This document shows positions 5,219 to 59,681 of a stretch of DNA of 64,000 nucleotides, piece by piece. Made by a program: the position numbers and the translations under genes. Origin of the DNA: Candidatus Uhrbacteria bacterium (GTDB lineage: Bacteria; Patescibacteriota; Patescibacteriia; GWA2-47-26); contig JACPJN010000008.1 of the NCBI GenBank assembly GCA_016187515.1, positions 4,525 through 68,524 on the forward strand, given 5' to 3'. The notes under the pieces were generated by a model, which saw only the letters and a list, made by a program, of their open reading frames with translations, had not been told where the DNA came from and did no database searches. Within the stretch, counting starts at the first letter, position 1. Each line of letters opens with the position of its first letter.

Positions 5219-5232
5219 TCCGTTTTTAAATT

Positions 5233-6432: not shown

Positions 6433-6435
6433 GCG

Positions 6436-6532
6436 TGGTATACTAGTCCTATGTGGATAAGTGACCCCGATCGCGATCGGGGTCATCCTGAGGAGTCCCG
6501 ACCAAGTCGGGACGACGAAGGATCTCGCGCCT
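6436..6532 (+). promoter_or_regulatory. putative pilin promoter (extended -10 TGgTATACT at 6436-6444) and structured 5' UTR with two perfect hairpins (6463-6484 GACCCCGATCGCGATCGGGGTC; 6495-6513 GTCCCGACCAAGTCGGGAC)
   Basis: Read directly from the sequence. Sits between the pilC stop and the pilin ATG at 6533. Confidence 0.35.
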
Positions 6533-6976: not shown

Positions 6977-7011
6977 GCCTCGTCCTTAAGCAAAAGAAAG
7001 GGGGTGAGACA

Positions 7012-7536: not shown

Positions 7537-7563
7537 GGCCGATCCAGACGTAGTAAGGAAGCG

Positions 7564-7599
7564 AAGGCTGCCTCATGAAGAGGCAGCCTTTTGCGTTTT
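7564..7599 (+). terminator. rho-independent terminator after the second pilin (AAGGCTGCCTC-atgaag-GAGGCAGCCTT + TTTGCGTTTTG)
   Basis: Perfect 11-bp stem followed by a T-rich tract. Confidence 0.6.
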
Positions 7600-7617
7600 G
7601 TGATACAATAGTGGACT

Positions 7618-14133: not shown

Positions 14134-14144
14134 GCTTTTTGCGG
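14111..14144 (+). terminator. 34-nt perfect palindrome CCGCAAAAAGCTCACGATCGTGAGCTTTTTGCGG overlapping the stop codon of the Cas2-like gene; likely bidirectional terminator
   Basis: Perfect hairpin flanked by A and T runs. Identical copy at 58404-58437. Confidence 0.5.
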
Positions 14145-14436
14145 CAATGGACGGGGTAGTGTGTTTATTGGTGTGGTAGTGTTGCTGATATTTTTACTGG
14201 TAGTGTTGCTCGGTAGAGGTAGCAGAATCACTACTGCGCATTTGTCGCGGTATATTATTTACGATCGTAAATAATATACGGAAGGCGGAAGGATGACATG
14301 GCAAGCCAGTAGAGTCAATTATGGCAAATTGTGGAGAAAGTGGAGAAAAAGAAAACCGAGCGAGGGCTCGGTTGGCGGCGTGCGCGGTGCACGTTCGCCC
14401 TAGTGATACAGTCGTGGGTGGCCTGCCTGCTGTTGA

Positions 14437-28292: not shown

Positions 28293-28364
28293 TCCGGGGT
28301 GGCGCAGCGGTAGCGCAGCTCCCTGTTAAGGAGTTGGTCGTGGGTTCGAATCCCACCCCCGGAG
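28293..28364 (+). tRNA. tRNA-Asn (anticodon GTT)
   Basis: Manual cloverleaf: acceptor TCCGGGG/CCCCGGA, D arm GCGC-AGCGGTA-GCGC, anticodon arm GCTCC-CTGTTAA-GGAGT, T arm GTGGG-TTCGAAT-CCCAC, discriminator G. 72 nt. Confidence 0.85.
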
Positions 28365-28510
28365 CCTGAAACTTACTATGTTCCATGTATATATCATCCA
28401 AAATCTTACTCGTGGTACGCGTTATGTGGGTAGTGCCGAGGATGAGGAATCCCACTCTCGGAGGCATAGTGAGAATTAAATTTCAATATTCTTCACTCGA
28501 CCCCCAAGCC

Positions 28511-28557
28511 CAACCGGGCTGATTTTTGTTTTTGAGGTGGTAGAGTGGGGGAATATG
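28511..28557 (+). promoter_or_regulatory. conserved box: small terminator hairpin (AGCCCAACCGGGCT) + TTGATT-17nt-TAGAGT promoter-like spacing, ending GGGGGAATATG (probable leaderless start). Copies at 29551-29599, 29841-29913, 31165-31213; variant at 28753-28809
   Basis: Four to five near-identical copies. Each precedes either an S element or a cassette gene ATG. Confidence 0.4.
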
Positions 28558-28580
28558 TTTGAAATACAAAACAAAGTGCA

Positions 28581-28752
28581 TTCTGCAATTCTGCGGAATC
28601 GCAGACCAAGAGGTGGGGAGGTGGGGGTCAACTCAATATCACCACCGCATCCCCCAAATGTCATCCCCGAGCGGCATCGGGGATCCAGTCAATTTCCCCT
28701 CTCCGACCGAGGTCGGAGGGATTAAGGCCTGCCTGCGCAGGCAGGGGTGGTT
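28581..28752 (+). repeat. S element copy 1: ~170-nt GC-rich structured repeat with four predicted hairpins
   Basis: TCTGCGGAATCGCAGA, TCCCCGAGCGGCATCGGGGA, CTCCGACCGAGGTCGGAG, GCCTGCCTGCGCAGGCAGG. About 90-95% identical to 29621-29820 and 30891-31089. Confidence 0.7.
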
Positions 28753-28806
28753 TTACTGCTCAAAGAGGGTTTACTTCAATGCTAAAAAGTGGTAGGATGG
28801 GGGAAT

Positions 28807-29415
28807 ATGAATCAGGAGGAAATTAAAAAGTTCTTGGAGTCATTTCAATCAAGGCAAGACAGGACTATCGTGATTGTTGATTATGGAAATGTAGAAAAGT
28901 GGAAAAATAGCTTAGGTTGGAAAGTTGGTATTAAGCAGTTGGGTAATCTTGTAAAACACTTTTCCAGCGGCAAGCAATTTTTACGTAGATTCTACTACGG
29001 GTCAGATTATGGGAAGAATGAGCGATCAACTTTGCGGTCCGAGTGGTCACGCTCGGCTACCGATCGCGCAAAGATGAACCGTTTTGAGGTGGTGACGAAA
29101 CGCGTCAAATGTATGCATAGCCAATCCAGCAAATATGGCTTTGAAAAGAAATGCGACTTAGATGTGGAGATGACCGTTGATCTTATCAAGGAGCGTGATA
29201 ATTATGACACGATTATTATCTTTTCAGGTGACGGAGACCTAATGTATGCAATTCGATATTTACGCGACATGTATGACAAGAAGTGTATTGTGTTTGGAGC
29301 CCGCGGACATATTGGGAGAGAGGTATTTGATGCGAAAGTTGAGGGGTTTGTAAATAATATTTTGTTTGCTGATGACTTTGAATATCGCCTTAATGACGCA
29401 CGATTTCGATGCTAA
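28807..29415 (+). CDS. NYN-domain (LabA-like, PIN-fold) putative RNase; cassette gene 1
   Basis: IVIVDYGNV ... CDLDVEMTVD ... IIIFSGDGDLMYA acidic motifs of NYN/LabA domains. Start taken at the ATG of the conserved box (ORF-track GTG at 28789 is in frame). Confidence 0.65.
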   Translation: MNQEEIKKFLESFQSRQDRTIVIVDYGNVEKWKNSLGWKVGIKQLGNLVKHFSSGKQFLRRFYYGSDYGKNERSTLRSEWSRSATDRAKMNRFEVVTKRVKCMHSQSSKYGFEKKCDLDVEMTVDLIKERDNYDTIIIFSGDGDLMYAIRYLRDMYDKKCIVFGARGHIGREVFDAKVEGFVNNILFADDFEYRLNDARFRC

Positions 29416-29620
29416 AAATCAAAAACCCGCCCAAATAGGCGGATTTTGATCAAAATGGGGTAAGCCCAAAGCTTACATTAATAATGTATCAAGCAAGCGC
29501 TGATTTGTCAATAGTTTTATCCACATGCGGTTTTTGGTTGAAAATCAGGCCATTCGGGCTTGAGTTTTTGTTTTTGAGGTGGTAGAGTGGGGGAATATGG
29601 CAATGCACAATTGAACACTC

Positions 29621-29855
29621 GGTCTGCGATTCGCGCGAATCGCAGACCGAGAGGTGGGGAGGTGCGGGTCAACTCAATATCACCACCGCATCCCCCAAAT
29701 GTCATCCCCGAGCGGCATCGGGGATCCAGTCAATTTCCCCTCTCCGACCGAGGTCGGAGGGATTAAGGCCTGCCCGCCAATCGCCTGACGGCTCAAGCCG
29801 GATGGCAGGCGGGGGTGGTTGCCAACCGCCCGCCCCAAGCCCCAATCGGGCTTGA
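29621..29855 (+). repeat. S element copy 2 (with an extra 3' extension carrying a GGTTGCCAACC hairpin and a terminator-like AGCCCCAATCGGGCT + T-run)
   Basis: Aligns with copies 1 and 3. An indel in the GCCTGCC..GGCAGG arm. Confidence 0.7.
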
Positions 29856-29910
29856 TTTTTTGTTTTTCAAGGGTTTACTTCAATGCTAAAAGGTGGTAGA
29901 GTGGGGGAAT

Positions 29911-30627
29911 ATGAATGAGGAGGAAAAAATAAGAGAGATGGCCATCGAGTTTGCGAAGCGAAATAAAAAGCGTATCGCAAAAGTACTGACTGATCCAAAG
30001 GTGTATGCGCCGGATCCTAATCCGATATCGGTGTTTATGGCTGGTTCTCCCGGCGCGGGGAAAACGGAATTGTCAAAAAACCTGATTGATCTTTTGGAAC
30101 GGGAACGAGAGCGCCGCGTCATTCGTATTGATGGCGATGAAGTCCGTCCGCTTATCCCCGGATATACCGGGGTAAATTCAAACTTATTTCATGGCGCTAT
30201 ATCTCTTATCGTTGAAAAAATGCAGGATTTGGCGTTGCATCAAGGTCAAACGTTTATATTGGACGGAACCATGGCAAATACTAATAAAGCAGTTGATAAT
30301 GTGCAGAGGTCGCTCGATAAGAATCGCACGGTTATAGTGTTTTATGTTTACCAACGACCCGAAGTCGCTTGGCAGTTTACACAAGCTCGCGAAGCGAAAG
30401 AAGGAAGGAATATACCCAAGTCGGCATTTATTGAACAATTCTTTGGTGCAAAGGATACCGTGCGCCGCGTTCATGAATTATTTCCAAGGAACGTAATGAC
30501 GTTTCTCGTAAAAAAGGATTTCAAAAATCGGACAGTTGAACATGTTAAGCTTGAGCATTCCGGTGCCGCGCTTGACACATATATCGGGGAGACGTATACT
30601 AAAGATGAACTTGAGCAACACTTATGA
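29911..30627 (+). CDS. zeta-toxin-like P-loop kinase (AAA/Zeta_toxin family); cassette gene 2
   Basis: Walker A MAGSPGAGKTEL, Walker B-like FILDGT, and overall similarity to zeta toxin / UDP-GlcNAc kinases. Confidence 0.6.
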   Translation: MNEEEKIREMAIEFAKRNKKRIAKVLTDPKVYAPDPNPISVFMAGSPGAGKTELSKNLIDLLERERERRVIRIDGDEVRPLIPGYTGVNSNLFHGAISLIVEKMQDLALHQGQTFILDGTMANTNKAVDNVQRSLDKNRTVIVFYVYQRPEVAWQFTQAREAKEGRNIPKSAFIEQFFGAKDTVRRVHELFPRNVMTFLVKKDFKNRTVEHVKLEHSGAALDTYIGETYTKDELEQHL

Positions 30628-30806
30628 AATTATTCAATATTTTTAAAAAACCAACTGAAGCCAAGCGTTCAGGGGGTTTTTCCGATTTCTTTTTGCATGC
30701 AAACGAAGAAGAAAAACGCAGAGTTATTGAAGAGGCCGCGCGGCGGGCCAACGAGGATCAACGCCGTCTGGTTGAACAATACGAAGCCCAAAAGAAAACC
30801 GCCTAA
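30624..30806 (+). CDS. small charged protein (60 aa) translationally coupled (ATGA overlap) to the zeta-like kinase; possible cognate antitoxin/partner
   Basis: Overlapping stop/start. Highly charged, helical sequence EEEKRRVIEEAARRANEDQRRLVEQYEAQKK. Confidence 0.35.
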   Translation: MKLFNIFKKPTEAKRSGGFSDFFLHANEEEKRRVIEEAARRANEDQRRLVEQYEAQKKTA

Positions 30807-30821
30807 CCCGGGCGGTTTTTT
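30795..30821 (+). terminator. rho-independent terminator (ACCGCC-TAACCCG-GGCGGT + TTTTTT)
   Basis: Stem-loop plus T-run; contains the stop codon of the small ORF. Confidence 0.6.
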
Positions 30822-30890
30822 AGTACATCATAGAAACAGCCATGCTCACAGCTCACAAATCACCAAGCTCACAAAGGGCTTGATTTTTTC

Positions 30891-31089
30891 TATTCTGCGA
30901 TTCTGCGGAATCGCAGACCAAGAGGTGGGGAGGTGCGGGTCAACTCAATGTCATCACCGCGCCCCCCAATGTCATCCCCGACCTGATCGGGGATCCAGTC
31001 AATTTCCCCTCTCCGACCGAGGTCGGAGGGATTAAGACCTGCCCGCCAATCGCCTGACGGCTCAAGCCGGATGGCAGGCGGGGGTGGTT
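30891..31089 (+). repeat. S element copy 3, followed by a half copy of the family-1 palindromic element (31111-31150) and the conserved box
   Basis: Aligns with copies 1-2. A frame-breaking difference relative to copy 1 shows it is non-coding. Confidence 0.7.
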
Positions 31090-31210
31090 GCAAACAATCC
31101 GCCAATCAATTCCTCCCCTTAAGGTAAGGGGAGGCGAGGAGGGGTTATGCTTCCGTCTCAATCCCAATCGGAGTTGATTTTTTGTTTTTGAGGTGGTAGG
31201 ATAGGGGAAT

Positions 31211-32620: not shown

Positions 32621-35023
32621 ATGACACAATATAAAAATCTGGAAGAAAAAATTGGTGCATACCTGGACAGCAATGAAAAACAGACTGTCAATTTTAAGGC
32701 CAGTGATTGGAGTGTTGTGTATGGTAATAAAATTAAACAGCATAAGGTTGTAAATAAAGTTACAGGAGATGAGGAATTTGTACGAATGTATTTGGTTTCA
32801 AAATTAGTGAACGAATTAGGGTATAAAGATGAAAATATTGAACTCGAAAAAACTTACCAAGCAGGACGACCCAAAACTATAAAGCCTAGGATTGACGTTA
32901 TTGTAAAAGATTCAAAAGGCAATCCTTTCTTTTTTATAGAGATTAAAGCTCCTGAAGAATTTGAAGCGGGTAAAAGTTTGATTGAAGATCAACTCTTCGG
33001 GTTGGCGGCGTTGGAGGAGGGAAAGTACGGTACGAATATAAAATATTTAGTTTACTTTTCAGTTGACGTCAATGATGTTGGTGCAATTAGAGATAAGTTA
33101 ATTGTGATTGATTACCAAAAATACCGTACATATGAGGTATGGGAAAAAGATGGTTTTCTGTCAGTAGCGGATGAATTGCCCGCGCGATACGAAATGGCAC
33201 AGAAAGAACCCTATATAAAAGGTGGCAAGAAGGATTTACTAAAAACTTTTGATAAAACTGATTTGAATTCCTTACGTGCAAACTTGCACAATGTACTATG
33301 GGGTGGTGGCGGTACAGATGATAATGACGTATTCGCCTATTTGGTAAATATAGTATTGGCCAAGATTCAAGATGAAGGTGAAAAAGCAGATGGTGAAAAA
33401 TATGATTTTCAGATCTTTACCTATGAAAAACAAGGGGGTGAAAAGTTTGAAAGCGATGAAGAGCTTTTCGAGAGAATTAATGGACTATATAGGCGAGCAC
33501 TCAAACAAAGACTGTATATAACCGATGAGGCGAAGTTAAAAAAGAGTTTTGTTATTGATGAAAACAAATTTTCTTTGAACAAATTAAAATATGCGGTTGG
33601 TGCATTAGAAAAATATTCTTTTGTTGATGGAAAAAATAATTTTGATGGCAAAGATATTTTGGGCGACTTTTTTGAGGGTATTATTCGTGAGGGGTTTAAA
33701 CAGACAAAGGGTCAATTTTTTACGCATATCAATGTGGTCCGGTTCATGCTTTGGGGTCTGCAGCTTGATAAGCTCGCCATTGAAAGGGTAAATAAGGATG
33801 TTGAACTGCCGTATCTTATTGATCCAAGTGCAGGCAGTGGCACATTTCTTATTGAATACATGAAATTTATTACTGACAATCTCAAGCGGAGATTTAGGAA
33901 TCAACTTGCGAAAAAACGAGATGTCGAGGATAAATTTCATCAGTGGTTTTTACCAGACCATCGTGAGAATAAATGGGCAGAAAAATTTATCTACGGTGTA
34001 GAGATAAATTTTAATCTCGGAACTGCTACTAAGGTGAACATGATCCTGCATGGTGACGGTTCCACCAATGTTTTTGTCAAGGATGGTCTTTTGCCATTTC
34101 GATTTTATGATAAGGAGACGGCACCGAATTTTCTTAAGCAATACGAGGAAGAAAAGACGTATTTTGATAAGGAGGTAAATGCGCAATTTGATGTAGTCAT
34201 TAGCAATCCACCCTTTAGTGTTGATTTGGATAATGAAACAAAAAAGAGTGTGAAGAAGGAGTTTATCTTTGGTGATAAAAAGAACTCGGAAAATTTGTTT
34301 ATAGAAAGGTGGTATCAATTACTGCGTGAAAATGGCCGACTAGGAGTTGTTTTGCCCGAAAGCGTGTTTGACACCACGGAAAACAAATATATCCGCCTGT
34401 TCATCTATAAATATTTCAAAGTAAAAGCAGTCGTGAGTTTGCCCCAGCTTACCTTTGAGCCATTTACTTCCACTAAAACCAGCCTGCTTTTCGCCCAAAA
34501 GAAAACCAAAGCAGAAATAGAAGAATGGAATAAACTCTGGAGCAAATACTCAAACGAATGGAGCGCGCTCAAAACCCGATGTGAAAATCTACTTGCTGTA
34601 TACCTTGAAGACAAAGACAGAAAAAAACTGCCCTCGATTAAGGATCTGAAAGAAGCTGAAGAAAAGCAAATTCTCGCGCGAATGCTCAAGGATTATCTTG
34701 AAGAAGACGACAAGAAGCTTTCTGCTAAGGCGCTGGTAGAAAAGTATCAAGACGAGCTCAAAGAGCTTTGCAAATACGATAATGACACCAAGGACGCATT
34801 TGGCTTTGTAAATACTTGGTGGGTATTTGGCGAAGTGGCAAAAGAGCTCAATTACAAAATCTTTATGGCGGAAGTGGAAAATGTGGGCTACAAGCGCACC
34901 AAGCGCGGCGAAAAACCGATGTCAAACGAACTATATCGCACAAACAGCAAGGGTGAGATTTTGATTGATGACGGCGAAACCAGAACCGCGCTGGATTATA
35001 TGAGAAAAATTGAGTGGGAGTAA
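32621..35023 (+). CDS. restriction-modification enzyme: N-terminal PD-(D/E)xK nuclease-like domain (HsdR_N-like, ..RIDVIVKD..FFFIEIK..) fused to a gamma-class N6-adenine DNA methyltransferase
   Basis: MTase motif I IDPSAGSGTFL and motif IV VISNPPF. N-terminal D..EIK nuclease motif. Followed by a specificity-subunit gene, giving a Type IIB/IIG- or Type I-like architecture without a separate HsdR. Confidence 0.7.
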   Translation: MTQYKNLEEKIGAYLDSNEKQTVNFKASDWSVVYGNKIKQHKVVNKVTGDEEFVRMYLVSKLVNELGYKDENIELEKTYQAGRPKTIKPRIDVIVKDSKGNPFFFIEIKAPEEFEAGKSLIEDQLFGLAALEEGKYGTNIKYLVYFSVDVNDVGAIRDKLIVIDYQKYRTYEVWEKDGFLSVADELPARYEMAQKEPYIKGGKKDLLKTFDKTDLNSLRANLHNVLWGGGGTDDNDVFAYLVNIVLAKIQDEGEKADGEKYDFQIFTYEKQGGEKFESDEELFERINGLYRRALKQRLYITDEAKLKKSFVIDENKFSLNKLKYAVGALEKYSFVDGKNNFDGKDILGDFFEGIIREGFKQTKGQFFTHINVVRFMLWGLQLDKLAIERVNKDVELPYLIDPSAGSGTFLIEYMKFITDNLKRRFRNQLAKKRDVEDKFHQWFLPDHRENKWAEKFIYGVEINFNLGTATKVNMILHGDGSTNVFVKDGLLPFRFYDKETAPNFLKQYEEEKTYFDKEVNAQFDVVISNPPFSVDLDNETKKSVKKEFIFGDKKNSENLFIERWYQLLRENGRLGVVLPESVFDTTENKYIRLFIYKYFKVKAVVSLPQLTFEPFTSTKTSLLFAQKKTKAEIEEWNKLWSKYSNEWSALKTRCENLLAVYLEDKDRKKLPSIKDLKEAEEKQILARMLKDYLEEDDKKLSAKALVEKYQDELKELCKYDNDTKDAFGFVNTWWVFGEVAKELNYKIFMAEVENVGYKRTKRGEKPMSNELYRTNSKGEILIDDGETRTALDYMRKIEWE

Positions 35024-37465: not shown

Positions 37466-38359
37466 ATGTCAGATCCATTTACAATTCGTATATTTGTTCC
37501 GGAGGGCGATCCGGAAGGGATTCGTATTATTGATCGCCTTAATTCGACAGGTACTTTTTTTGCATTTCCAAGAGCAAAATGGGCGCAAATGCGCAATCAT
37601 GAAAAACTTAATCAAGCCGGAATTTATATTTTAAACGGTTATGCAAATCCGGACGATGAATTGCCGACTATTTATGTTGGTCAAGCAGATGTAGTTAAGA
37701 ATAGAATTGAGCAGCATACGCGGAATAAAGATTTTTGGGACAAAGGAGTGGTGTTTGTTTCTTCAAACATGAATGTGACATACGCAAAGTGGCTTGAGTA
37801 TGCCCTAGTTAAGCAAGCATCGGAGGCTGGACGGAGTATACTTGAAAATGGTAATAATCCGCAGGAGCCCAACATTTCTGAATCGGAAAAAGCGGACATG
37901 CAAGTTTTTCTAAAGGAAATCTATCAGACATTACCGCTCGTTGGTCTGAGTGCATTTGAGATACCTAAGACAGTTGCGAAGCCGGAGACAGTGCGCCAAG
38001 AACATGCCAGCGATAGAGATACGATTGTGGTTCCGGCTCAAGAGGATGGATTTAAGCGGGTATTCCTCGGAGAAAATGCGTGGTGGTCTGTTCGCATATC
38101 CGGCGGCATGCTTGATAAGATTCGATATATCGCAGCATATCAAGTCGCACCAATAAAAGCCATTACACATATTGCTCAAGTGAATCGTATTGAACCGTAT
38201 GGTGAAGAGGGAAAATACAAATTAATCTTTACAGAGCCCGCAAGGCGTTTGGATAATCCAATTCCATTTGGCAATGCGCCACAGGGGATGATGCAAGGTC
38301 CAAAATACACGAATTTTGAAAAATTGAAGAAGGCAAAACAATTAACGGATCTTTTTTAA
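37466..38359 (+). CDS. GIY-YIG nuclease-family protein with an uncharacterised C-terminal domain
   Basis: GIYILNG..TIYVGQA..VKNRIEQH matches the GIY / YIG / catalytic Arg-Glu pattern. Co-oriented 39 nt after the S subunit gene. Confidence 0.55.
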   Translation: MSDPFTIRIFVPEGDPEGIRIIDRLNSTGTFFAFPRAKWAQMRNHEKLNQAGIYILNGYANPDDELPTIYVGQADVVKNRIEQHTRNKDFWDKGVVFVSSNMNVTYAKWLEYALVKQASEAGRSILENGNNPQEPNISESEKADMQVFLKEIYQTLPLVGLSAFEIPKTVAKPETVRQEHASDRDTIVVPAQEDGFKRVFLGENAWWSVRISGGMLDKIRYIAAYQVAPIKAITHIAQVNRIEPYGEEGKYKLIFTEPARRLDNPIPFGNAPQGMMQGPKYTNFEKLKKAKQLTDLF

Positions 38360-38385
38360 GTGTGTAGTGAATTTAACCCCGCACA

Positions 38386-38557
38386 CTCATCCTTACAAAC
38401 TCCAGTATTTAAGGATGAAAGTGGTCATACAGATTTTTGCACTGGATAGAGGGCCTTGCGCCGGATTCCGTGGCCTGCCCCCACACCAATTTTAGAAATA
38501 TTGGTGTGGGGGCAGGCCGCGAGGCATTTGTGCTTATATATTTTTTCCGTGGATGAT
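38386..38557 (+). repeat. R2 element copy 1 (~170 nt: CCTTAAAT..ATTTAAGG hairpin, then a 20-bp perfect stem GCCTGCCCCCACACCAAT-TTTAGAAAT-ATTGGTGTGGGGGCAGGC, then a T-run)
   Basis: Direct repeat of 39769-39939 (~90% identical). A partial third copy of its first arm at 38703-38740, followed by a partial S element at 38744-38790. Confidence 0.6.
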
Positions 38558-38915
38558 CATGTGAAATCTCTCCCACCCCCTCTAACTCCCCCTCGGGCAG
38601 GGGGAGAAATTTTATTGGGCAGGAGGGGAAAGTGATAACCGAATACTCGCCAAAAGATTTTAAAAATTTTTAATCCCACACCCCAAACTCCCAACCCCAA
38701 ACCATCCTTAAATTCTCAAGTATTTAAGGATAAAAAATCTCCATTCTGCGATTCCCTCCTACGGCGGACAGGCGCGCGAATCGCAGAATGCCGCAGTGGA
38801 CAGGCACACGTTAAGCGGGGTAGGCAGGAATCCAAAACGCGTCACCATTGGCGCGTTTGTGCATATACTTGACATTTTCCTTCATTTATGAAACAATGTC
38901 TTCAGGAGGAAAACA

Positions 38916-39623
38916 ATGGAAAATCGTTCATTTTCATTTGATACATACCAGGCCACACATCCAAAGACCGATGCGGTGTGGAAAGCACTTTGCGCCGGCC
39001 CGCTTCGTGCGGCAATTCAAGCCACGTTGAAGCTGTTCGTCGAAGATGCTTGTCGGTTTTTTGTCATCCATGCGGGGCAAGTACAGACCCTATCGCATGA
39101 TCAGCGCATTGAATTGTACTACCTTCATTACATTAGCCCTTTGTGTTCGCCGGGAAGCCTTCCAGATACCAAACCCCGCGAGGTATTCTCACGGGTACTC
39201 ATTGCCGCGATTACTGAATTCGTGGATTTGGAATCCGGACGTACATTCCCCGGCGCCAAGAGTCGCAAAGTTACCTTAGGCGAAGTCCATGAAACAAGTT
39301 TCGGGGGTGATGCCTCGGGTGAGAATGGTATAAGGATTGTGGATGCGGAAATTGAATTACTGCGGCATGTGTGGGATGAACTCTGCCAGCTAAAGGAGGT
39401 ATCGGATCTTGAGGATCGGACCGCAGGGGCGCCGGTTCTGAATTTTCCGTCGTCGTTGGATAGCGAATTCTGCGCGGAGGAGTTTTCCAGCGTGTGTATG
39501 GGTTCGTTCCTGCGTGTCCTTGTGGACAATATTCTCCACCTGTATGATTATTTCGGTGATCCGCAGTACGTGCGAGAAATGGCGGAGCAAGCGGCGCGCG
39601 AGGAAGCCAGATCTGGTAACTAG
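38916..39623 (+). CDS. hypothetical protein (235 aa), GC-rich, flanked by R2 direct repeats
   Basis: Strong RBS GGAGGAAAACA before the ATG. No recognisable motif. Confidence 0.4.
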   Translation: MENRSFSFDTYQATHPKTDAVWKALCAGPLRAAIQATLKLFVEDACRFFVIHAGQVQTLSHDQRIELYYLHYISPLCSPGSLPDTKPREVFSRVLIAAITEFVDLESGRTFPGAKSRKVTLGEVHETSFGGDASGENGIRIVDAEIELLRHVWDELCQLKEVSDLEDRTAGAPVLNFPSSLDSEFCAEEFSSVCMGSFLRVLVDNILHLYDYFGDPQYVREMAEQAAREEARSGN

Positions 39624-39768
39624 CCTATAAGGAGGGGTGCTCGACATTGCGCCGCACGACCCGGCATTTTGCCGTGGTCTTTTTTTGTAAAATGACCCAG
39701 AATTTCTTGACACCACCCCTCGCCGGGCGGGGGAGTGGGCGGATGTTCCACCCCCCCCCCAACACCAA

Positions 39769-39939
39769 CTCATCCTTAAATTCTCAAGTATTTAAGGATG
39801 AAAGTGGTCATCAGATTTTTACATTGTATAGACGGCCTTGCGCCGGATTCCGTGGCAAGCCCCCACACCAATTTTAGAAATATTGGTGTGGGGACAGGCC
39901 GCGAGGCAGTTGTGCCTATACATTTTTTCCGTGGATGAT
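39769..39939 (+). repeat. R2 element copy 2, preceded by a C10 homopolymer (39751-39760)
   Basis: Aligns with 38386-38557. Confidence 0.6.
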
Positions 39940-40016: not shown

Positions 40017-40529
40017 GTGTATATGGTAAAAAATCCCAAAATTAACGAGAAAAAGTACCGCAATGCCGTGCTTTTTTTCGCGAATAAGATTCGCAATGGT
40101 ACACTGGGCAAACTGAAGCTGATGAAGCTTTTGTATTATCTTGATTTTGATTTTTTTGAGAAGTATGGCCGGTCGGTGACTGGAGACGAATATTTGCGTT
40201 TTGAAAATGGGCCGGTACCACGGATGGCCGAGAAGACATTAAAGCGGATGCGGGGCAAGGAAATAAAAATTGTGAACCGCAAGATGCAAAAAGGATATAA
40301 TGATCAGCAGCACATTGAGCCGCTTATCACATTTGATCCAAGTTCTTTTTCACGAGAAGAAATTTTGATGATGGAAGAAATTGCTGATAAGTGGGAGAGG
40401 TTTACCGGAACGGAAATGAAAAGTGCGAGTCATGGTGAAGCGCCATGGATCGCCACAAAGCCGAACGATGTTATTGACTATAATCTTTCGTATTACCGCA
40501 ATAAATATGCCGAGATGGAACGGCTTTAG
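40017..40529 (+). CDS. Panacea-domain (DUF4065, SocA/PanA-like) putative antitoxin
   Basis: KLKLMKLLYYLDFDFFEKYGRSVTGDEYLRFENGPVPRM matches the DUF4065 core (KLQKLLYF....G.pl..d.f.aw.GPV). Confidence 0.6.
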   Translation: MYMVKNPKINEKKYRNAVLFFANKIRNGTLGKLKLMKLLYYLDFDFFEKYGRSVTGDEYLRFENGPVPRMAEKTLKRMRGKEIKIVNRKMQKGYNDQQHIEPLITFDPSSFSREEILMMEEIADKWERFTGTEMKSASHGEAPWIATKPNDVIDYNLSYYRNKYAEMERL

Positions 40530-40535
40530 TGTGGT

Positions 40536-40871
40536 ATGGAAATTTCTCGGCACGATGCTATTGAAAAAGATTTTCGTGCGTTAAGACGTTCTGCCGCGCC
40601 GCAAGAATCGCTTGAGGCATGGGAACGCCTTTTTTGTTTAAAGGGGTTACGGGAAACGCCGGCAATTGACGCGTTCCCCGGGTTTGGCGGGCGGAAAATT
40701 TTCAAAGGGCGAGTGGTGCCGCTTAAAGAAAATGTGGGCAAGTCAAAAGGGTATAGGGTTATTTTTGAGATGGTTCATGAAAGTCATTGTATCATTTTGG
40801 TTTTTTCGCGACATGGCGTGTACCATACTGAAACGGAGCTAGTTGCGCTAATTAAAGAACGCCTTCATTAA
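40536..40871 (+). CDS. putative RelE/ParE-fold toxin partner of the Panacea antitoxin
   Basis: C-terminal KSKGYRVIFEMVHESHCIILVFSRHGVYH resembles the RelE/ParE/HigB C-terminal strand motif. 7-nt intergenic gap. Confidence 0.45.
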   Translation: MEISRHDAIEKDFRALRRSAAPQESLEAWERLFCLKGLRETPAIDAFPGFGGRKIFKGRVVPLKENVGKSKGYRVIFEMVHESHCIILVFSRHGVYHTETELVALIKERLH

Positions 40872-44211: not shown

Positions 44212-46200
44212 ATGGCCATACCTTACGCGCGGGATTTGAATCGCGAACAATTAGCAGTGGTGCAAGGGGGCGACGGCCCCTGTTTGGTCTTGGCCGGAGC
44301 CGGAACCGGAAAGACGCGCACCATTACCTATCGGGTCGCGTATTTACTGGAGCAGGGGGTGGCGCCCGGGCGCATTCTGCTCGTAACTTTTACCAACAAA
44401 GCCGCGCGGGAAATGCTCCGCAGGGTGGAACTCTTGATGGGTGCCCGGCCGCAAGGGCTCTGGGGCGGGACCTTTCACCATGTGGGTCACGCGCTCCTGC
44501 GCCGTTACGGGTCGCGCATCGGAATTCCGCCGTCATTTACAATTTTGGACGCGGATGACAATGCCGAATTGCTGAAAGCCGTAATGGCGGCCAGCGGCCG
44601 CGGTAAAAAAAGTGATCAGTACTTTCCGGCGCCGGACGTGGTGGAAAATCTGATCAGTTTCGCGGCCAATAGCGGACGTCCGCTGCCGGAGCTTATTTTA
44701 GAGTGGCTGCCGCGGCATGCTGATAAAACTCCGGAACTGCTGCGTATCGCGGCCGCTTATGAGCAAAGAAAACGTGAGCGGAATGTCGTCAGTTTTGATG
44801 ATCTCTTGGCTTTTTGGCTGCGCATTTTACGGGAGCGTCCGGAAGTGCGTGAAAAGCTGGGCGGAAAATTTGACTACATCTTAATTGATGAATATCAAGA
44901 TACGAATCGCCTGCAAGGGATGATTGTGGAGGAATTGGCGCGGGGCGCGAAAAATGTTTTGGTCGTCGGCGATGACGCCCAGTCCATCTATGCTTTCCGC
45001 GCCGCCACGGTTGAAAATATTATGCGCTTTCCGGAGGTCTTTCCCGGAGCGCGAACCTTCCGGCTGGTGCAGAATTATCGTTCCACCCAGGCGATTTTGG
45101 ATCTTGCCAATGCCGTAATTATTTGCAATCGCCGGCAGTTTGAAAAAGAACTGCGTACCGTGCGTGGCCGCGGATCTACACCGGAGCTCATCGGCTGCGC
45201 GGATAATCGCGAGGAAGCCCGATTTATTGTTGATCGCGTGCTGGAATTTCATAGTGAAGGCGAAACACTTTTGGAGAGCGCGGTATTATTCCGAGCCGCG
45301 TATCATGGCATGCAGATTGAACTGGAACTTCAAAAACGCGGCGTGCCCTACATTATTCGGGGCGGAATTCGGTTTTTTGAGCAGGCGCACATTAAGGATG
45401 TGGTGGCGTATTTGCGCGTGGTCGCCAATCCGCTAGACGAATTAGCGTGGCAGCGCATGCTTAAAATGGAAGAGGGGATCGGCGATAAAACGGCGGCAGT
45501 GATTGTAGAAAAGTTGATTCATAACGCCCCCCCGCCCCCTCTTACCTTAAGAGGGGGAGCGGCTGACAATCCTCCCCTTAAGATAAGGGGAGGTGCAGGA
45601 GGGGTTATGAAAAGCGAAGCAGGATTAGCAAAGGTGCTCCGGCGCGTGGATCACCTTAAGACCGTGCCGCAGGTTGATAAAATGATTTCGTATGTGCTGG
45701 AGGCGTTTTATGCGGATTATGCTCAAGCGCAGTTCGAAAATGCGACGGAGCGGCTGGAGGATCTTGAGCAACTGGCCTTGTTTGCGGCCTCCTATGAAAA
45801 ATTGGAGGAATTTTTAGCCGATGCGACGCTTTCGGAAGGATTTCGCGGTGATCGCGCCGCGGCAACGCCGCAGGATGCGGATAAAGAATATCTGGTGCTC
45901 TCGACCATCCATCAGGCCAAAGGTCTGGAATGGAAAAATGTATTTGTGGTCGGACTGGTTGACGGACAATTTCCGCATCACAAATCCCGCGCGCGCCGCG
46001 AGGAGCTGGAAGAAGAACGCCGTTTATTTTATGTGGCGATTACCCGCGCGCGGGAGCGGCTCTACTTAACTTATCCGCTAACAAGCTTAGCGGCGCTGGG
46101 AACCGCGATACACCAGCCGTCGCTGTTTGTGCGCGAACTTGATCCGGAATTATATCAAGAGATCCGGAATGAGGAAACCGTGATTGAATATGCGGACTAA
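44212..46200 (+). CDS. pcrA: ATP-dependent DNA helicase PcrA/UvrD family with an in-frame palindromic element insertion (45520-45609)
   Basis: Walker A AGAGTGKTRT, motifs TFTNKAAREM, DEYQDTN, and a C-terminal UvrD domain. Insertion encodes HNAPPPPLTLRGGAADNPPLKIRGGAGGVM. Confidence 0.85.
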   Translation: MAIPYARDLNREQLAVVQGGDGPCLVLAGAGTGKTRTITYRVAYLLEQGVAPGRILLVTFTNKAAREMLRRVELLMGARPQGLWGGTFHHVGHALLRRYGSRIGIPPSFTILDADDNAELLKAVMAASGRGKKSDQYFPAPDVVENLISFAANSGRPLPELILEWLPRHADKTPELLRIAAAYEQRKRERNVVSFDDLLAFWLRILRERPEVREKLGGKFDYILIDEYQDTNRLQGMIVEELARGAKNVLVVGDDAQSIYAFRAATVENIMRFPEVFPGARTFRLVQNYRSTQAILDLANAVIICNRRQFEKELRTVRGRGSTPELIGCADNREEARFIVDRVLEFHSEGETLLESAVLFRAAYHGMQIELELQKRGVPYIIRGGIRFFEQAHIKDVVAYLRVVANPLDELAWQRMLKMEEGIGDKTAAVIVEKLIHNAPPPPLTLRGGAADNPPLKIRGGAGGVMKSEAGLAKVLRRVDHLKTVPQVDKMISYVLEAFYADYAQAQFENATERLEDLEQLALFAASYEKLEEFLADATLSEGFRGDRAAATPQDADKEYLVLSTIHQAKGLEWKNVFVVGLVDGQFPHHKSRARREELEEERRLFYVAITRARERLYLTYPLTSLAALGTAIHQPSLFVRELDPELYQEIRNEETVIEYAD

Positions 46201-50524: not shown

Positions 50525-52240
50525 ATGCTCAAAAAGTTGTCAAGTACAGGCAAGAAATTCTATATCACAACTCCAATTTACTACGTCAACGACGTGCCGC
50601 ATATTGGGCATGCGTATACGACGATTGCGGCGGATGTGTTGGCGCGGTATTATCGGGCGCGCGGCGAGCCGGTGCGTTTTTTGTGCGGCACGGATGAGAA
50701 CGCGCAGAAGAATGTGGAGGCGGCGTTGCGACACACCCCCTCTAACTCCCCCTCGGAAAGGGGGAGAAAACAATTTCCTCCCCTTTTGAAGGGGAGGTTA
50801 GGAGGGGTCCGTGAAGTTGTCCAGCAGTACGTTGATGAAATGTCGGCGAAGTGGCAGCGCACGTGGGACGAGCTCCAGATTTCCAATGACGATTTTATCC
50901 GCACTACCGAGCCGCGGCATGTAAAATATGTGGAGAAATTTTGGGGCCTGGTAAAAAAGGGCGATATTTATAAAGGCCAGTACGAGGGTCTGTATTGTAC
51001 CGGTTGTGAAGCGTACAAAACCGAAACCGAACTTGTAAAAGGCAAGTGCCCGGATCATAATCGCGCGCCGGAAAAATTAAGCGAGGAAAATTATTTTTTC
51101 AAACTTTCCGCGTATCGCAAAAAATTGTTAGCGCATATTAAAAAGCATCCCGAATTTATTCAGCCCGAAGCGCGGCGCAATGAAGTAACGGCGTATATTC
51201 GCGACCACACGGCGGATTTCAGCATTTCGCGAAAAAATTTGGAGTGGGGGATTCCGGTTCCGGGCGATCCGTCGCAGACGATCTATGTCTGGTTTGACGC
51301 GCTGCTCAACTACATTAGTGCAGTAACTCCCTCACCCCCTCCTCAATCCTCCCCCATCAAGGGGGAGGAAGAAAAAGGAAGTTCCCCTCCCCTTGTGGGA
51401 GGGGTTAGGGGAGGGGTCAATGGTGAGGGGTGGTGGCCGGCGGATTTGCATCTGGTTGGCAAAGACATAATCAAATTTCACTGCGCCTACTGGCCGGCCA
51501 TGCTAATGTCAGCCGGACTTCCGCTTCCACGAACAATTTTTGCGCATGGATTTTTCACCGTGGATGGCCAGAAAATGAGCAAAACCATCGGCAATGTTGT
51601 TGATCCGGTGGCAATGGCGAAAAAATATGGTAATGACGTTTTGCGTTATTATTTAATGCGTGAAATTCCGTTTGGCGGAGATGGAGATTTTTCCGAAGCG
51701 CGTTTACGGGAGCGCTACAATGGCGAGCTGGCCAACGGGCTTGGAAATTTGGTGGCGCGAGTATTGACGATGGTGGAGAAGTACAGTGAAGGTGTGGTTC
51801 ATAACCCCTCCCAACCTCCCCTTACCTTAAGGGGAAGAGACGATCGCGTACCCCCTCTTAAGGTAAGAGGGGGCGAGGGGGAGTTATGGCAACAATACGA
51901 ATCCCACATGGCACAATATCAGCTTGACCGCGCGCTAGACACGGTGTGGAAATTTATTAGCGCACTGGACGCTTTGATTGATCAGGAACAGCCGTGGAAA
52001 TTGGCAAAACATGACAAAGAGCGCCTTAATATGGTATTATATACTTTAGCCGAGAATTTACGTCACATCGCTTGGATGCTCCTGCCTTTTATGCCGGAGA
52101 CCGCGGGAAAGATCTTTGAACAACTTGGTGTGCCACGCGAGACCTCCGAACGCACGTATGAACAGGCAAAAGAATGGGGCGGCCTCAAATCCGGCACAAA
52201 AATCGAGCGAGGAGATTCCTTATTTCCACGATTAATATAA
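50525..52240 (+). CDS. metG: methionyl-tRNA synthetase with three in-frame palindromic element insertions (50733-50810, 51323-51432, 51800-51888)
   Basis: HIGH motif (VPHIGHAYT), KMSKS (KMSKTIGN), zinc knuckle CTGCEAYKTETELVKGKCPDH. Insertions encode TPSNSPSERGRKQFPPLLKGRLGGV, a Pro/Gly-rich 35-aa segment, and HNPSQPPLTLRGRDDRVPPLKVRGGEGEL. Confidence 0.9.
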   Translation: MLKKLSSTGKKFYITTPIYYVNDVPHIGHAYTTIAADVLARYYRARGEPVRFLCGTDENAQKNVEAALRHTPSNSPSERGRKQFPPLLKGRLGGVREVVQQYVDEMSAKWQRTWDELQISNDDFIRTTEPRHVKYVEKFWGLVKKGDIYKGQYEGLYCTGCEAYKTETELVKGKCPDHNRAPEKLSEENYFFKLSAYRKKLLAHIKKHPEFIQPEARRNEVTAYIRDHTADFSISRKNLEWGIPVPGDPSQTIYVWFDALLNYISAVTPSPPPQSSPIKGEEEKGSSPPLVGGVRGGVNGEGWWPADLHLVGKDIIKFHCAYWPAMLMSAGLPLPRTIFAHGFFTVDGQKMSKTIGNVVDPVAMAKKYGNDVLRYYLMREIPFGGDGDFSEARLRERYNGELANGLGNLVARVLTMVEKYSEGVVHNPSQPPLTLRGRDDRVPPLKVRGGEGELWQQYESHMAQYQLDRALDTVWKFISALDALIDQEQPWKLAKHDKERLNMVLYTLAENLRHIAWMLLPFMPETAGKIFEQLGVPRETSERTYEQAKEWGGLKSGTKIERGDSLFPRLI

Positions 52241-54419: not shown

Positions 54420-55238
54420 ATGTCAAGTGTATCCGTCATTATCCCGTGCTACAATGCCGAGCGCACGATTGAGCGGTGCTTGGAGTCAATTTTCGCGCAG
54501 ACGTATCGGAATGTTCACATTGTCATTGTGAATGATGGTTCTACGGATGCCACACTTTCAGTAGTGCACGATACGATTTCACGATTGCGCAATCGTGAAA
54601 TGCGTATCGAGGTGGTGTCGCAGGAAAATCGAGGGGCTAACGCGGCGAGAAATAGGGGATTTGCGGAATGTGTGACACATAACCCACCCCAACCCTCCCT
54701 TACCTTAAGGGAGGGGGAATCGTCCAGGGTTCCTCCCCTTAGGGTAAGGGGAGGTGAGGAAGGGTTACGAACCGCGCACTATGCGCTCTTCTGTGATGCG
54801 GATATTGTGCTCCGCCGCGACTGCCTTGAAAAAATGGTACGCGCGCTAGAGGAACACCCCGATGTATCATATGCTTACTCTTCATTTAAATTCGGATGGA
54901 AAACATTTAAGCTCTGGCCGTTTGATGCAGAGCGCTTGCATAAAATGCCATACATCCACACGACGTCGCTCATTCGCGCGGATCACTTTCCCGGTTGGGA
55001 TGAATCCATAAAACGCCTGCAGGACTGGGACCTTTGGCTTACCATGCTTGAACAAGGACACACCGGCGTATGGATTCCCGAAGTGCTATTTCGCGTGATA
55101 AATACCAAAGGCACCATGAGCACGTGGCTGCCCTCATTTGCCTATAACATCCCCAAATGGCTGGGAATACAACCCAAGGCCGTAATGCTCTATAATGAGG
55201 CCGTGGCGCGTATAAAAGCGAAACATAACCTAAAATAG
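54420..55238 (+). CDS. family 2 glycosyltransferase with an in-frame palindromic element insertion (54678-54769)
   Basis: VSVIIPCYNAERTIERCLESIFAQTY..VIVNDGSTD GT2 N-terminus. Insertion encodes HNPPQPSLTLREGESSRVPPLRVRGGEEGLR. Confidence 0.8.
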   Translation: MSSVSVIIPCYNAERTIERCLESIFAQTYRNVHIVIVNDGSTDATLSVVHDTISRLRNREMRIEVVSQENRGANAARNRGFAECVTHNPPQPSLTLREGESSRVPPLRVRGGEEGLRTAHYALFCDADIVLRRDCLEKMVRALEEHPDVSYAYSSFKFGWKTFKLWPFDAERLHKMPYIHTTSLIRADHFPGWDESIKRLQDWDLWLTMLEQGHTGVWIPEVLFRVINTKGTMSTWLPSFAYNIPKWLGIQPKAVMLYNEAVARIKAKHNLK

Positions 55239-58088: not shown

Positions 58089-59681
58089 ATGACCAGATTG
58101 CCACAGATCACGGATATGCGATTTCGTACTCTCGTTTTGATATTTCTTCTTGCCGAGCTTGTTTCATACACGGGATATTTTTTTCCAGCAATAAATACCG
58201 CGGGATTTTTTGTGACTGTGGCGGCGGCGTTGGTGCTATCGCTTAAGCGGCTGGAGTATGGATTGTATTTTGTATTGGCGGAATTGATTTTGGGAGGGAA
58301 AAGCGGAGCGCTGTTTTCTTTTGAATATGGGGGATTTTTTCTTTCGCTGCGCATGGCATTGTTTATCGTGATCATTGCAGTATGGTTTGCTAAAATGATC
58401 GGCCGCAAAAAGCTCACGATCGTGAGCTTTTTGCGGCAGCCATCTTTAAGATGGTGGGGCATTCTAGGTATCGCTGTGCTCTGGGGAATTATAGTTGGAC
58501 TTGCGCGCGGCAATGATTTTGGCAATGTGTTCCTAGATGCGAATGGATATTTTTATGCCGCATTAATTTTGCCAGTGTGGTGGGCGCTTAAGGGTGCGAA
58601 TTACGAATCCGTTGCGAATTCACGAATCTCGAATTCGGAGATTCGCAAATCCCAGTCGAATTCGCAATTCGCACCCCTCGGTACAGTGTTTTTTGCCGCC
58701 ACCACCCTCCTCGCGCTGAAGACGCTTTTTGCGGTGTATCTTTTTACCCACGCCGGCAGTAATTTTATTGGCGCGAATTTGGCGCCGTTTTATCGGTGGA
58801 TCAGGGATACCGGAGTAGGGGAGATTACTTGGCTGCCCGGAAATTTCGCAAGAGTGTTTTTCCAGAGTCAGATTTATAATGTGATGGCGTTTTTCGCGGT
58901 GCTGGTTATTCTGATGCGCACCCCCTCTCACTCCCCCTCGGAAAGGGGGAGAAATTGGTTGCAATTTCCTCCCCTTTTCAAGGGGAGGTTCGGAGGGGTC
59001 TTGATTCTCAATACCGCCGTCATCATTGTTTCCCTTTCCCGCAGTTTTTGGGTGGGGATGATCGCGGGATTGCTCGTGGTCGCGGTGGTCTCGGGCCGTA
59101 TCGGACGGATACGGCATATCGGACGCCTGGTCGGCCTCCTTGCGGGTTCCGCGGTCGCGGCAGTACTGCTGCTTCTTGCCTTCGCCCGTTTTCCATTCCC
59201 CAAACCGGCCCCGGCGGATTTGGGAACCGCGGTCCAAAGCCGGCTGGAAGCCGGAGACGCCGGACAAAGCCGCTGGAATCTTTTGCCGGCAATGTGGAGT
59301 ACCGTTCGTGAGCATCCAATCCTTGGCAGCGGATTTGGGCGCACGGTAACGTATATCTCGAATGATCCCAGAGTTCGTGAGGTTAGCCGTACCGGAGAAT
59401 ATACAACTTACGCTTTTGAATGGGGGTGGATTGACGTGTGGGTGAAGATGGGACTGATGGGACTTATAGGTCTTATCGGTCTTATGGGACGCATAGGAAT
59501 TATGCTCTACCGTCGGGCAAAAACTGACCCTCGGGCCTTGGCTGCTCTTGCAGTTCTCGCTGTTCTTGCTTCAATCAATATATTTACCCCCTACTTAAAT
59601 CACCCCTTGGGGCTGGGCATTTTAATCCTGCTTGCCGGGATAAGTATCGCTTGTCAGGAGAAGCGCCTTATGGTATCCTGA
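58089..59681 (+). CDS. large polytopic membrane protein (possible O-antigen ligase/polymerase-like) carrying three repeat insertions
   Basis: >10 TM helices. Insertions: the 34-nt CGATCG palindrome (58404-58437, encodes KKLTIVSF), GAATTCGC-type tandem repeats (58612-58680, ANSRISNSEIRKSQSNSQF), and a family-2 element (58918-59000, PSHSPSERGRNWLQFPPLFKGRFGGV). Confidence 0.4.
   Translation: MTRLPQITDMRFRTLVLIFLLAELVSYTGYFFPAINTAGFFVTVAAALVLSLKRLEYGLYFVLAELILGGKSGALFSFEYGGFFLSLRMALFIVIIAVWFAKMIGRKKLTIVSFLRQPSLRWWGILGIAVLWGIIVGLARGNDFGNVFLDANGYFYAALILPVWWALKGANYESVANSRISNSEIRKSQSNSQFAPLGTVFFAATTLLALKTLFAVYLFTHAGSNFIGANLAPFYRWIRDTGVGEITWLPGNFARVFFQSQIYNVMAFFAVLVILMRTPSHSPSERGRNWLQFPPLFKGRFGGVLILNTAVIIVSLSRSFWVGMIAGLLVVAVVSGRIGRIRHIGRLVGLLAGSAVAAVLLLLAFARFPFPKPAPADLGTAVQSRLEAGDAGQSRWNLLPAMWSTVREHPILGSGFGRTVTYISNDPRVREVSRTGEYTTYAFEWGWIDVWVKMGLMGLIGLIGLMGRIGIMLYRRAKTDPRALAALAVLAVLASINIFTPYLNHPLGLGILILLAGISIACQEKRLMVS

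Follow-up and report, generated by a model that had tools for sequence, protein, structure and literature searches.

Plasmids of Acinetobacter carry dif modules, units of one or two genes, often encoding toxin-antitoxin pairs or regulators, that are bounded by 28-bp pdif sites built as an 11-bp arm, a 6-bp centre and a second 11-bp arm (PMC6449649). We describe a palindrome with this same 28-bp 11-6-11 architecture, palindrome A, in a 64,000-nt stretch of a Candidatus Uhrbacteria genome (contig JACPJN010000008.1 of assembly GCA_016187515.1; hereafter the window). It occurs exactly three times, always in the same orientation and only at one locus, where two direct repeats of ~170 nt (R2) flank an orphan open reading frame (ORF) of 235 codons, ORF235. 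The canonical site reads ATCCTTAAATA-CTCCAG-TATTTAAGGAT or, as one continuous sequence, ATCCTTAAATACTCCAGTATTTAAGGAT. Our preferred explanation, which we hold tentatively, is that palindrome A is a protein-recognized DNA site that joins single-gene modules, the best-candidate binder being a small ArsR-type winged-helix protein. ORF235 would be one such module, and recombination between blocks would have left the R2 repeats as by-products. Members of the Patescibacteria (the Candidate Phyla Radiation, CPR) are uncultivated and have tiny genomes, and to our knowledge their ways of regulating and exchanging genes are almost entirely unexplored; a 28-bp site that is conserved base for base and linked to a single invariant small DNA-binding protein gives a concrete point of entry. 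In the searchable literature we found no description of palindrome A or of its link to a regulator gene, and nothing relevant on CPR palindromes, operators or cassettes.

A first, sequence-only reading of this DNA had described direct repeats of ~170 nt on either side of ORF 38916-39623, and these are real. Aligned without gaps over 128 nt, positions 38430-38557 and 39812-39939 share 92% of their bases, far beyond chance; with one 1-nt indel the similarity spans ~38386/39769 to 38557/39939 and the copies are ~90% identical. Their hairpin core (CCCCCACACCAAT-TTTAGAAAT-ATTGGTGTGGGG) has exactly two occurrences, with 0 expected, and the 64-kb window holds no third copy of R2. The 'partial R2 arm' noted between the repeats turned out to be a third copy of their first, AT-rich hairpin, that is, of palindrome A. 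Three modular blocks can be recognized around ORF235: M1 (38375-38557), M2 (38690-38868) and M3 (39758-39939). Each runs in the same order from a C/A-rich tract through the 28-bp palindrome A, a ~50-nt spacer and a long GC-rich palindrome to a short tail with TTTGTGCnTATA. The long palindrome is of one kind, palindrome B, in M1 and M3, and consists of 'family-2' arms with an expanded centre in M2.

Comparison of the blocks reveals how M3 is put together. In the 30 nt upstream of palindrome A, M3 is 62% identical to M2 and 48% identical to M1, and over the left arm and centre of the palindrome (17 nt) the values are 100% and 76%. The right arm (11 nt) is 100% identical in both comparisons. Over the 143 nt that follow, M3 matches M1 at 87-92% and M2 at about 50%. 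The left part of A in M3 is therefore M2-like and its right side M1-like, which places the similarity switch inside the palindrome. M3 is a chimera in which the left part of M2 is joined to the right part of M1, and this mosaic is direct evidence of past recombination, as had been suspected of the locus. The M1/M3 similarity ends directly after GGATGAT, the bases of the outer end of the right arm of A. R2 is palindrome A together with the DNA to its right and not a unitary element; the view of it as a single repeat family was abandoned, since only its two palindromes recur elsewhere. The features of the locus, in window coordinates, are as follows.

37466-38359, + strand: upstream neighbour, a 297-aa ORF that closes the low-GC restriction-modification island (ORF list)
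38375-38388, + strand: C/A-rich tract heading block M1 (three-block alignment)
38389-38416, no strand: palindrome A copy 1, ATCCTTACAAA-CTCCAG-TATTTAAGGAT (hybrid arms)
38417-38468, + strand: R2 spacer of block M1 (87% identity to the M3 spacer; unrelated to M2)
38469-38521, no strand: palindrome B copy 1, intact long stem (inverted repeat; fold -29.2 kcal/mol, z = -9.5)
38522-38557, + strand: R2 tail of M1 (…TTTGTGCTTATATA…CCGTGGATGAT), ending GGATGAT (sequence read, block alignment)
38574-38611, no strand: S element, a hairpin like repetitive extragenic palindromic (REP) sequences, of a 7-copy family in the window (repeat search)
38690-38703, + strand: C/A-rich tract heading block M2 (repeat search, block alignment)
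38704-38731, no strand: palindrome A copy 2, ATCCTTAAATT-CTCAAG-TATTTAAGGAT (28/28 nt identical to copy 3)
~38745-38788, no strand: 'family-2' palindrome with expanded centre, arms TTCTGCGATTC/GAATCGCAGAA (sequence read)
38869-38897, + strand: promoter-like site of ORF235, TTGACA, 17 nt, TG-n-AACAAT (consensus match 10/12 plus TG)
38904-38909, + strand: Shine-Dalgarno sequence AGGAGG, 6 nt before the ORF235 ATG (sequence read)
38916-39623, + strand: ORF235, apparent orphan protein-coding gene, 235 aa (ORF list, codon score)
39662-39690, + strand: terminator-like hairpin and T7 run after ORF235 (terminator scan; weak stem)
39751-39760, + strand: C10 run within the C/A-rich tract heading M3 (sequence read, block alignment)
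39772-39799, no strand: palindrome A copy 3 (similarity switch, M2-like on the left to M1-like on the right)
39800-39850, + strand: R2 spacer of block M3 (block alignment)
39851-39903, no strand: palindrome B copy 2, degenerate, three uncompensated substitutions (inverted repeat, 80% complementary)
39904-39939, + strand: R2 tail of M3, ending GGATGAT (block alignment)
40023-40529 and 40536-40871, + strand: downstream neighbours, a SocA/Panacea-domain antitoxin gene and its 111-aa partner ORF

The S element and the family-2 fragment had both been placed between the repeats by the sequence-only reading, correctly. A terminator-like match lies inside the S element at 38586-38606, and family-2 arms with a short centre are also found at 28580-28605, 29621-29648 and 30892-30917.

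Module junctions are suggested at other loci (L numbers) as well. A 790-bp one-gene segment is common to the otherwise different contigs L101 (1659-2500), L123 (3854-4634), L145 (4115-4925) and L079 (3695-4505) at 91-98% identity. Its similarity sets in at the right arm of palindrome A or beside it, and the DNA upstream differs in three ways; in L123 the right arm is all that survives of the A site. L101 and L123 also differ in how the module is ordered with respect to the regulator gene. We regard the segment as a candidate mobile module. Across all loci, ends of DNA similarity fall within 10 nt of an A site 61 times against 6.3 expected, an enrichment that is partly trivial because conserved genes end beside A sites. 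Together, the 790-bp segment, the breakpoints and the M1/M2/M3 chimera constitute evidence for recombination at palindrome A. In the strain pair L033/L112 the indels are not at A sites. The 790-bp segment carries an ORF of unknown function and has its own promoter-like site (TTGCTT-17-TATAAT), which recurs at the downstream end.

ORF235 itself had been called unannotatable, and this holds: it has no homologue among 5.77 billion proteins or, in a full phmmer scan, among 1.84 billion cluster representatives, and no Pfam match. An AlphaFold2 single-sequence model was unusable (predicted local distance difference test score 42). Its codon score is positive in frame +1 only, at 0.12 bits per codon, a low value near that of other genes of the island. 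With this score, the AGGAGG and the promoter-like and terminator-like sites, ORF235 looks like a real gene and a strict orphan. Such an ORF, having its own promoter-like, ribosome-binding and terminator-like sites, would qualify as one module, and the ~90% identical R2 copies could delete it by homologous recombination. Identical copies are present in four short public contigs, which together represent no fewer than 14 sequencing runs. The C10 tract was correctly reported at 39751-39760; the suggestion that it is a phase-variation site found no support, since the run is intergenic, belonging to the C/A-rich tract that precedes palindrome A, and is 10 C long in all four of these independently assembled contigs.

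The repeats leave a clear trace in public data. Every contig reached that carries the neighbouring genes breaks inside a repeat: all 7 contigs with the 297-aa ORF stop inside block M1, L165 starts at palindrome A copy 3, and short-read contigs (L001-L004, L147-L153, L165) start or stop inside palindrome A or B. The break positions are 38433, 38478, 38506, 38580, 38702, 39771, 39799/39800 and 39888. Palindromes A and B systematically fragment short-read assemblies of this genome, a point to bear in mind when such genomes are annotated.

Palindrome A extends far beyond this locus. The pattern ATCCTTANANNCTCNAGTATTTAAGGAT matched at least 120 metagenome stretches, and as it fixes 23 of the 28 bases the diversity of the family is underestimated. 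Among the matches listed, the loci range from 33 to 53% GC with unrelated flanks, and the palindrome is intergenic at 127 of 135 unique sites, genes in these metagenome loci being crude longest-ORF calls. Density is low (187 sites in 654 kb), although arrays of up to six sites between consecutive genes occur (e.g. in L047); convergent gene pairs enclose 15-16 sites and divergent pairs only 7-8. Within the window, looser matches are no more frequent than in shuffled sequence. Copy 1 is a hybrid of a left arm of the ACAAAC variant (ATCCTTACAAA) and a canonical right arm and folds weakly (-5.5 kcal/mol); the same ATCCTTACAAA arm type forms a perfect palindrome in L012 and L164. Palindrome A is a strongly conserved, lineage-wide site in Patescibacteria rather than debris, and the earlier label of 'junkyard' undersells the locus. 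A viral contig collection contained neither palindrome A nor palindrome B, and a phage origin was rejected on this ground.

Several properties indicate that palindrome A acts at the level of DNA. The four bases on each side of the site pair above partner-shuffled controls (at the second position out, 77/124 against 41.9 ± 5.2). Read outward, both flanks are T-rich and almost C-free, and the C/A-rich tract of M1 resembles the typical left flank of the family elsewhere in being G-poor and A/C-rich. The A/T tracts are equally strong on both sides regardless of the direction of the neighbouring gene. Sense-strand mismatches comprise 27 G·T and 33 A·C, so there is no wobble bias. At gathering score, Rfam returned only tRNA in the window and 13 related loci; at an E-value threshold, the R2 copies gave only miRNA-hairpin look-alikes far below gathering scores. 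The lack of wobble bias, the independence of the tracts from gene direction and the absence of an Rfam match together make it most likely that palindrome A is read as DNA, not RNA.

The hairpins might still be proposed to work in RNA, as terminators, 3'-end stabilizers, processing sites or a small RNA. The predicted folds of whole R2 are indeed strong on either strand (z = -5.8 to -6.6), the A-rich left and T-rich right flanks of the family recall bidirectional terminators, and many sites lie 2-15 nt after stop codons. Besides the three observations just given, an AT-rich stem whose sequence and not merely its pairing is conserved, the lack of a T tract at the window copies and a rarity that ill suits general termination (the 64 kb hold 3 copies, none of them outside this locus) lead us to consider this very unlikely. 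A directional intrinsic terminator was rejected outright because of the AT-rich stem, the symmetric tracts and the window copies without a T tract. A promoter within A was also set aside: its -35-like centre TTGAGA fits some copies upstream of the regulator gene, but the spacing to a -10 box is inconstant and the window copies have no -10 box.

One gene family stands out next to palindrome A. An ORF of ~95 aa encoding an ArsR-type winged-helix protein directly adjoins the site in 35 of 120 loci, and no other neighbour family exceeds 7 loci, again among the matches listed. The protein matches PF01022 above the cut-off and, weakly, ArsR structures in the PDB. Its family comprises more than 1,900 clusters at 90% identity, which the sources assign to Patescibacteria, with Zambryskibacteria, Liptonbacteria, Taylorbacteria and Parcubacteria among them. 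Across 25 aligned members 42 columns are invariant, among them ANEKT.GEH.R.L and NKKY..FVEH.L.PYG, which by analogy with ArsR folds we assign as the putative recognition helix and the putative wing. Metal-sensing ArsR proteins carry a Cys-containing metal-sensing motif; none was seen by eye in the 25-member alignment.

Five loci of 13-20 kb (L154, L158, L160, L162 and L164) were fetched through the protein alone and are unbiased with respect to the palindrome. In every one of the five, A-type palindromes flank the ArsR-type gene: one lies 1-44 nt ahead of the ATG, in most loci beside a TATAAT-like box, and another follows the stop codon by 1-6 nt. The only other A copy in these loci is one in L158. 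These sites vary least in the centre CTNNAG and in the inner arm bases, and the outer arms alternate between CCTTA and CCAAC types, often within a single site. By our own count, 16 of 19 site pairs around the gene have the same orientation, where orientation is set by the two central bases only. About five further palindrome A sites exist per regulator unit.

This arrangement admits a purely regulatory explanation, in which A would be only the operator of an ArsR-type repressor, the two forming a lineage-wide pair like HrcA and CIRCE, the blocks around ORF235 and the SocA module would be regulatory or insulating spacers and the mosaic would result from ordinary intergenic recombination, with no special role for the site. 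ArsR/SmtB repressors have known 12-2-12 operators, and A, read as a 13-2-13 or 11-6-11 inverted repeat, fits them in size and symmetry. Its position, adjoining or overlapping the promoter of an ArsR-family gene (in all five loci the ATG follows within 1-44 nt, and a TATAAT-like box is mostly close by), the invariance of the putative recognition helix, the lineage-wide conservation of both protein and site, the low copy number (about five further sites per regulator unit) and the DNA-level mismatch signature are all consistent with an operator. However, a second site directly after the stop codon in 5/5 loci is unusual for autoregulation, and the sites also occur at convergent gene ends (15-16, against 7-8 at divergent ones) and in arrays between unrelated genes. 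In the unbiased sites conservation is highest at the central CTNNAG, where a dimeric winged-helix protein would not normally make contact; the arm types occur as hybrids; no Cys motif was seen by eye; and the window has no regulator gene. We think this explanation possible, if doubtful. If it were right, palindrome A would define the first lineage-wide regulon of Patescibacteria.

In our preferred reading, a protein would recognize palindrome A as DNA, and the conserved ~95-aa ArsR-type protein, whose gene is bracketed by A, is the candidate binder. A sites would be junctions at which single-gene modules join and exchange through recombination, and the R2 direct repeats would have arisen when the left part of M2 was combined with the right part of M1 to give M3. 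The sequence comparisons show the anatomy of the blocks, the M3 chimera, the wide conservation of A, its association with the regulator gene and its DNA-level signature; the identity of the binder, and the mode of exchange, be it site-specific or through the short 28-bp homology, are inferred. Besides the partial triviality of the breakpoint enrichment, a number of observations weigh against this reading. The 64-kb window encodes no copy of the ArsR-type gene, and its three A sites are without the A/T-tract flanks typical of the family. No recombinase was found near the locus, either among the ORFs read from 28 to 46 kb or in a Pfam scan of 30 window proteins, nor in a motif screen of 129 mid-size ORFs in hairpin loci. 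No pair of empty and occupied sites was found for ORF235, all public contigs reached ending within the repeats. The R2 copies differ by ~8-10%, so that either the event is old or the partners had diverged; the right copy of palindrome B is decaying, which speaks against selection on that part; and the sites on the two sides of the ArsR-type gene could equally be purely regulatory.

A more far-reaching proposal would make palindrome A the recombination site of an unrecognized chromosomal gene-cassette system of Patescibacteria, analogous to dif modules and integrons. Modules (the ubiquitous ArsR-type gene, toxin-antitoxin genes, orphans such as ORF235) would be excised and inserted at its centre, with the winged-helix protein as a site-binding accessory factor. 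Such a system would be new and would explain how orphans like ORF235 are acquired; we judge it decidedly unlikely. As with pdif modules, the same module is found in different contexts and orders, and conservation of the arms is stronger on their inner than on their outer side (PMC6449649). Unlike pdif sites, which lie on Acinetobacter plasmids and bound modules in inverse orientation, A is chromosomal and occurs in Patescibacteria, and its pairs, as far as the two central bases define orientation, would be mostly direct (16/19 by our count). The centre CTNNAG is conserved, in contrast to the variable centre of dif, and the two arms are alike, which would suggest a single-recombinase type if A serves in recombination at all. 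Set by eye against the XerC and XerD binding arms of E. coli dif, which we take to be GGTGCGCATAA-TGTATA-TTATGTTAAAT, its arms agree at only about 4/11 positions, a comparison subject to the caveat that this consensus may not be that of Patescibacteria.

The locus also invites comparison with chromosomal integrons, R2 or A taking the place of attC: a single ORF sits between directly repeated structured sites within an array of small accessory genes, toxin-antitoxin genes are nearby and all genes have one orientation. Against this, no IntI, tyrosine recombinase or Phage_integrase match was found among the 30 window proteins scanned, the RYYYAAC and GTTRRRY (R″/R′) boxes are absent, as are extrahelical bases or bulges, the site measures 28-36 bp against about 57-141 bp for attC, and ORF235 has its own promoter-like site. 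An integron cassette is scarcely credible here. Overall, the nearest known systems are Acinetobacter dif modules, ArsR/SmtB operators and BIMEs (bacterial interspersed mosaic elements), and, as judged from sequence features, none fits as a family: dif agrees in the 28-bp 11-6-11 layout and not in the arm consensus, the defining features of REP elements and attC are missing, and the operator layout is present.

Palindrome B behaves differently from palindrome A. A 20-bp perfect stem had been claimed for both R2 copies, and this is true of the left copy (GCCTGCCCCC...GGGGGCAGGC; 22 pairs, -29.2 kcal/mol) and not of the right one (GCAAGCCCCC...GGGGACAGGC), where three substitutions, all pair-breaking, reduce the stability to -18.1 kcal/mol. 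The arm pattern CCCACACCAAT-N9-ATTGGTGTGGG was found in 22 stretches from 7 species-representative genomes of several phyla: 6 in Elusimicrobia, 5 in Omnitrophota, 5 and 3 in two genomes of Parcubacteria, and 1 each in Saccharibacteria, Uhrbacteria and Acidiferrobacterales. By our own calculation, random sequence amounting to 596 Gb should yield about 0.07 matches. In 21 of the 22 cases 13 nt of the arms agree, and the arms are multi-copy in 4/7 other genomes. The loops are genome-specific, each genome embeds B in a longer repeat of its own, the neighbourhoods have no gene in common, and nothing else of R2 matches at the B-bearing loci. B therefore appears to behave like a unit of the REP type or of the type of MITEs (transposable elements that are miniature and have inverted repeats), with arms probably under a shared constraint. 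L113 has an R2-like architecture of C-rich tract, A, spacer and CCCCCACACC-type palindrome. Since A and B are adjacent only in L113, L007 and L012, a general association of the two was rejected. In L005, L017, L019, L023 and L026, from Elusimicrobia and Saccharibacteria, B is seen by eye to be flanked by direct TTTAC…TTTAC (GTAAA…GTAAA on the other strand), which could be a target-site duplication or a preferred target.

These properties raise the question of whether the whole locus consists of selfish or neutral repeats, like REP sequences, bacterial interspersed mosaic elements (BIMEs) or MITEs, duplicated locally by unequal crossing-over or slippage and without function for their neighbours, ORF235 merely happening to lie between copies. 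The genome is rich in other palindromic families (S, 'family-2' and CATAAC…GTTATG), some of them inside ORFs. The BIMEs of E. coli have a mosaic composition, and the blocks here are likewise extragenic assemblies of varying palindromic units, with B multi-copy in several genomes, each with its own loops and longer repeats, and its right copy at this locus decaying. Palindrome A does not fit this picture. It is low-copy, conserved base for base across loci of 33-53% GC and far beyond the species, and tied to one gene family, unlike species-specific REPs; the window has only two copies of B and three of A in 64 kb. REP super-families carry GTAG or CGTC tags (PMC3733652), and the ends here have neither. 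REPs are palindromes of 20-40 bp that number tens to hundreds per genome and go with a RAYT transposase gene, and this genome is not known to have a RAYT gene. R2, which starts TCATCC and ends GGATGA (a 6-bp inverted match), has neither a target-site duplication nor further copies in the window, as would be features of a MITE. R2 as a whole has no match elsewhere, and apart from its two palindromes the rest of it matched nothing; a search for further copies through translated pseudo-ORFs gave no candidate, a weak negative that depends on the gene callers. We therefore consider that selfish or neutral repeats are an unlikely explanation.

Neisseria and Haemophilus have DNA uptake sequences, arranged as inverted pairs behind genes, at a density of about one per kb. 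Palindrome A resembles them as a short cross-species sequence present as hairpin arms just downstream of genes, and the window encodes type IV pilus parts, but A occurs only a few times per genome. The window opens with these pilus assembly genes, which at 619-8487 encode PilM, a PilC/T2SSF-type protein and a prepilin peptidase, in agreement with the DNA-uptake pili proposed for these organisms.

The A centres at 38400-38405, 38715-38720 and 39783-39788 read CTGGAG or CTTGAG on one strand or the other, which we take to be the sequences recognized by BpmI and BpuEI, type IIG enzymes of the Eco57I family. A methylase gene of that family (32621-35023) is located 3.4 kb upstream of the locus, and restriction-modification genes neighbour the ArsR-type gene in L158 and L160. 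All this may be coincidence.

The locus belongs to an accessory stretch downstream of dnaG, rpoD and tRNA-Asn (28293-28366). This contains NYN, zeta-toxin, RadC and Phd/RelE-like genes, each behind its own repeated spacers, followed by a low-GC restriction-modification block (32-38.4 kb), the 297-aa ORF (without a match in a Pfam scan), ORF235 and the SocA/Panacea pair, whose antitoxin gene matches PF13274 (E = 2.7e-18). An island bounded by tRNA-Asn was rejected because the 3' end of the tRNA is not repeated in the window. Directly after the tRNA, at 28378-28470, is a short open frame (MFHVYIIQNLTRGTRYVGSAEDEESH…) that, read by eye, may be the N-terminal stub of a GIY-YIG (UPF0213-type) protein. 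At 28480-31210 there are three tandem blocks (periods 1041 and ~1270 nt) in which a hairpin-rich repeated spacer of ~250 nt precedes the NYN, zeta-toxin and RadC genes. The spacer repeat takes in the promoter-like region and the first codons; these blocks form a second set of repeated spacers between single accessory genes, distinct from the first.

Other palindromic repeats are scattered over the window. REP-like double-hairpin elements (CATAACCC…two CCTCCCC/GGGGAGG hairpins…GGGTTATG) at 11751-11832, 45519-45612, 51799-51892 and 54677-54773 are in frame within a 720-aa ORF, a UvrD/PcrA-like helicase, MetRS and a GT2 glycosyltransferase. In this they resemble the Rickettsia palindromic elements, which insert into coding genes. 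The Pfam matches of MetRS and the glycosyltransferase are split at the elements, and the helicase segment lines up with part of PcrA without adding net length. At 14111-14146 and again at 58403-58438, 44 kb apart, stand 100% identical copies of a perfect palindrome of 36 nt, CCGCAAAAAGCTCACGATCGTGAGCTTTTTGCGGCA.

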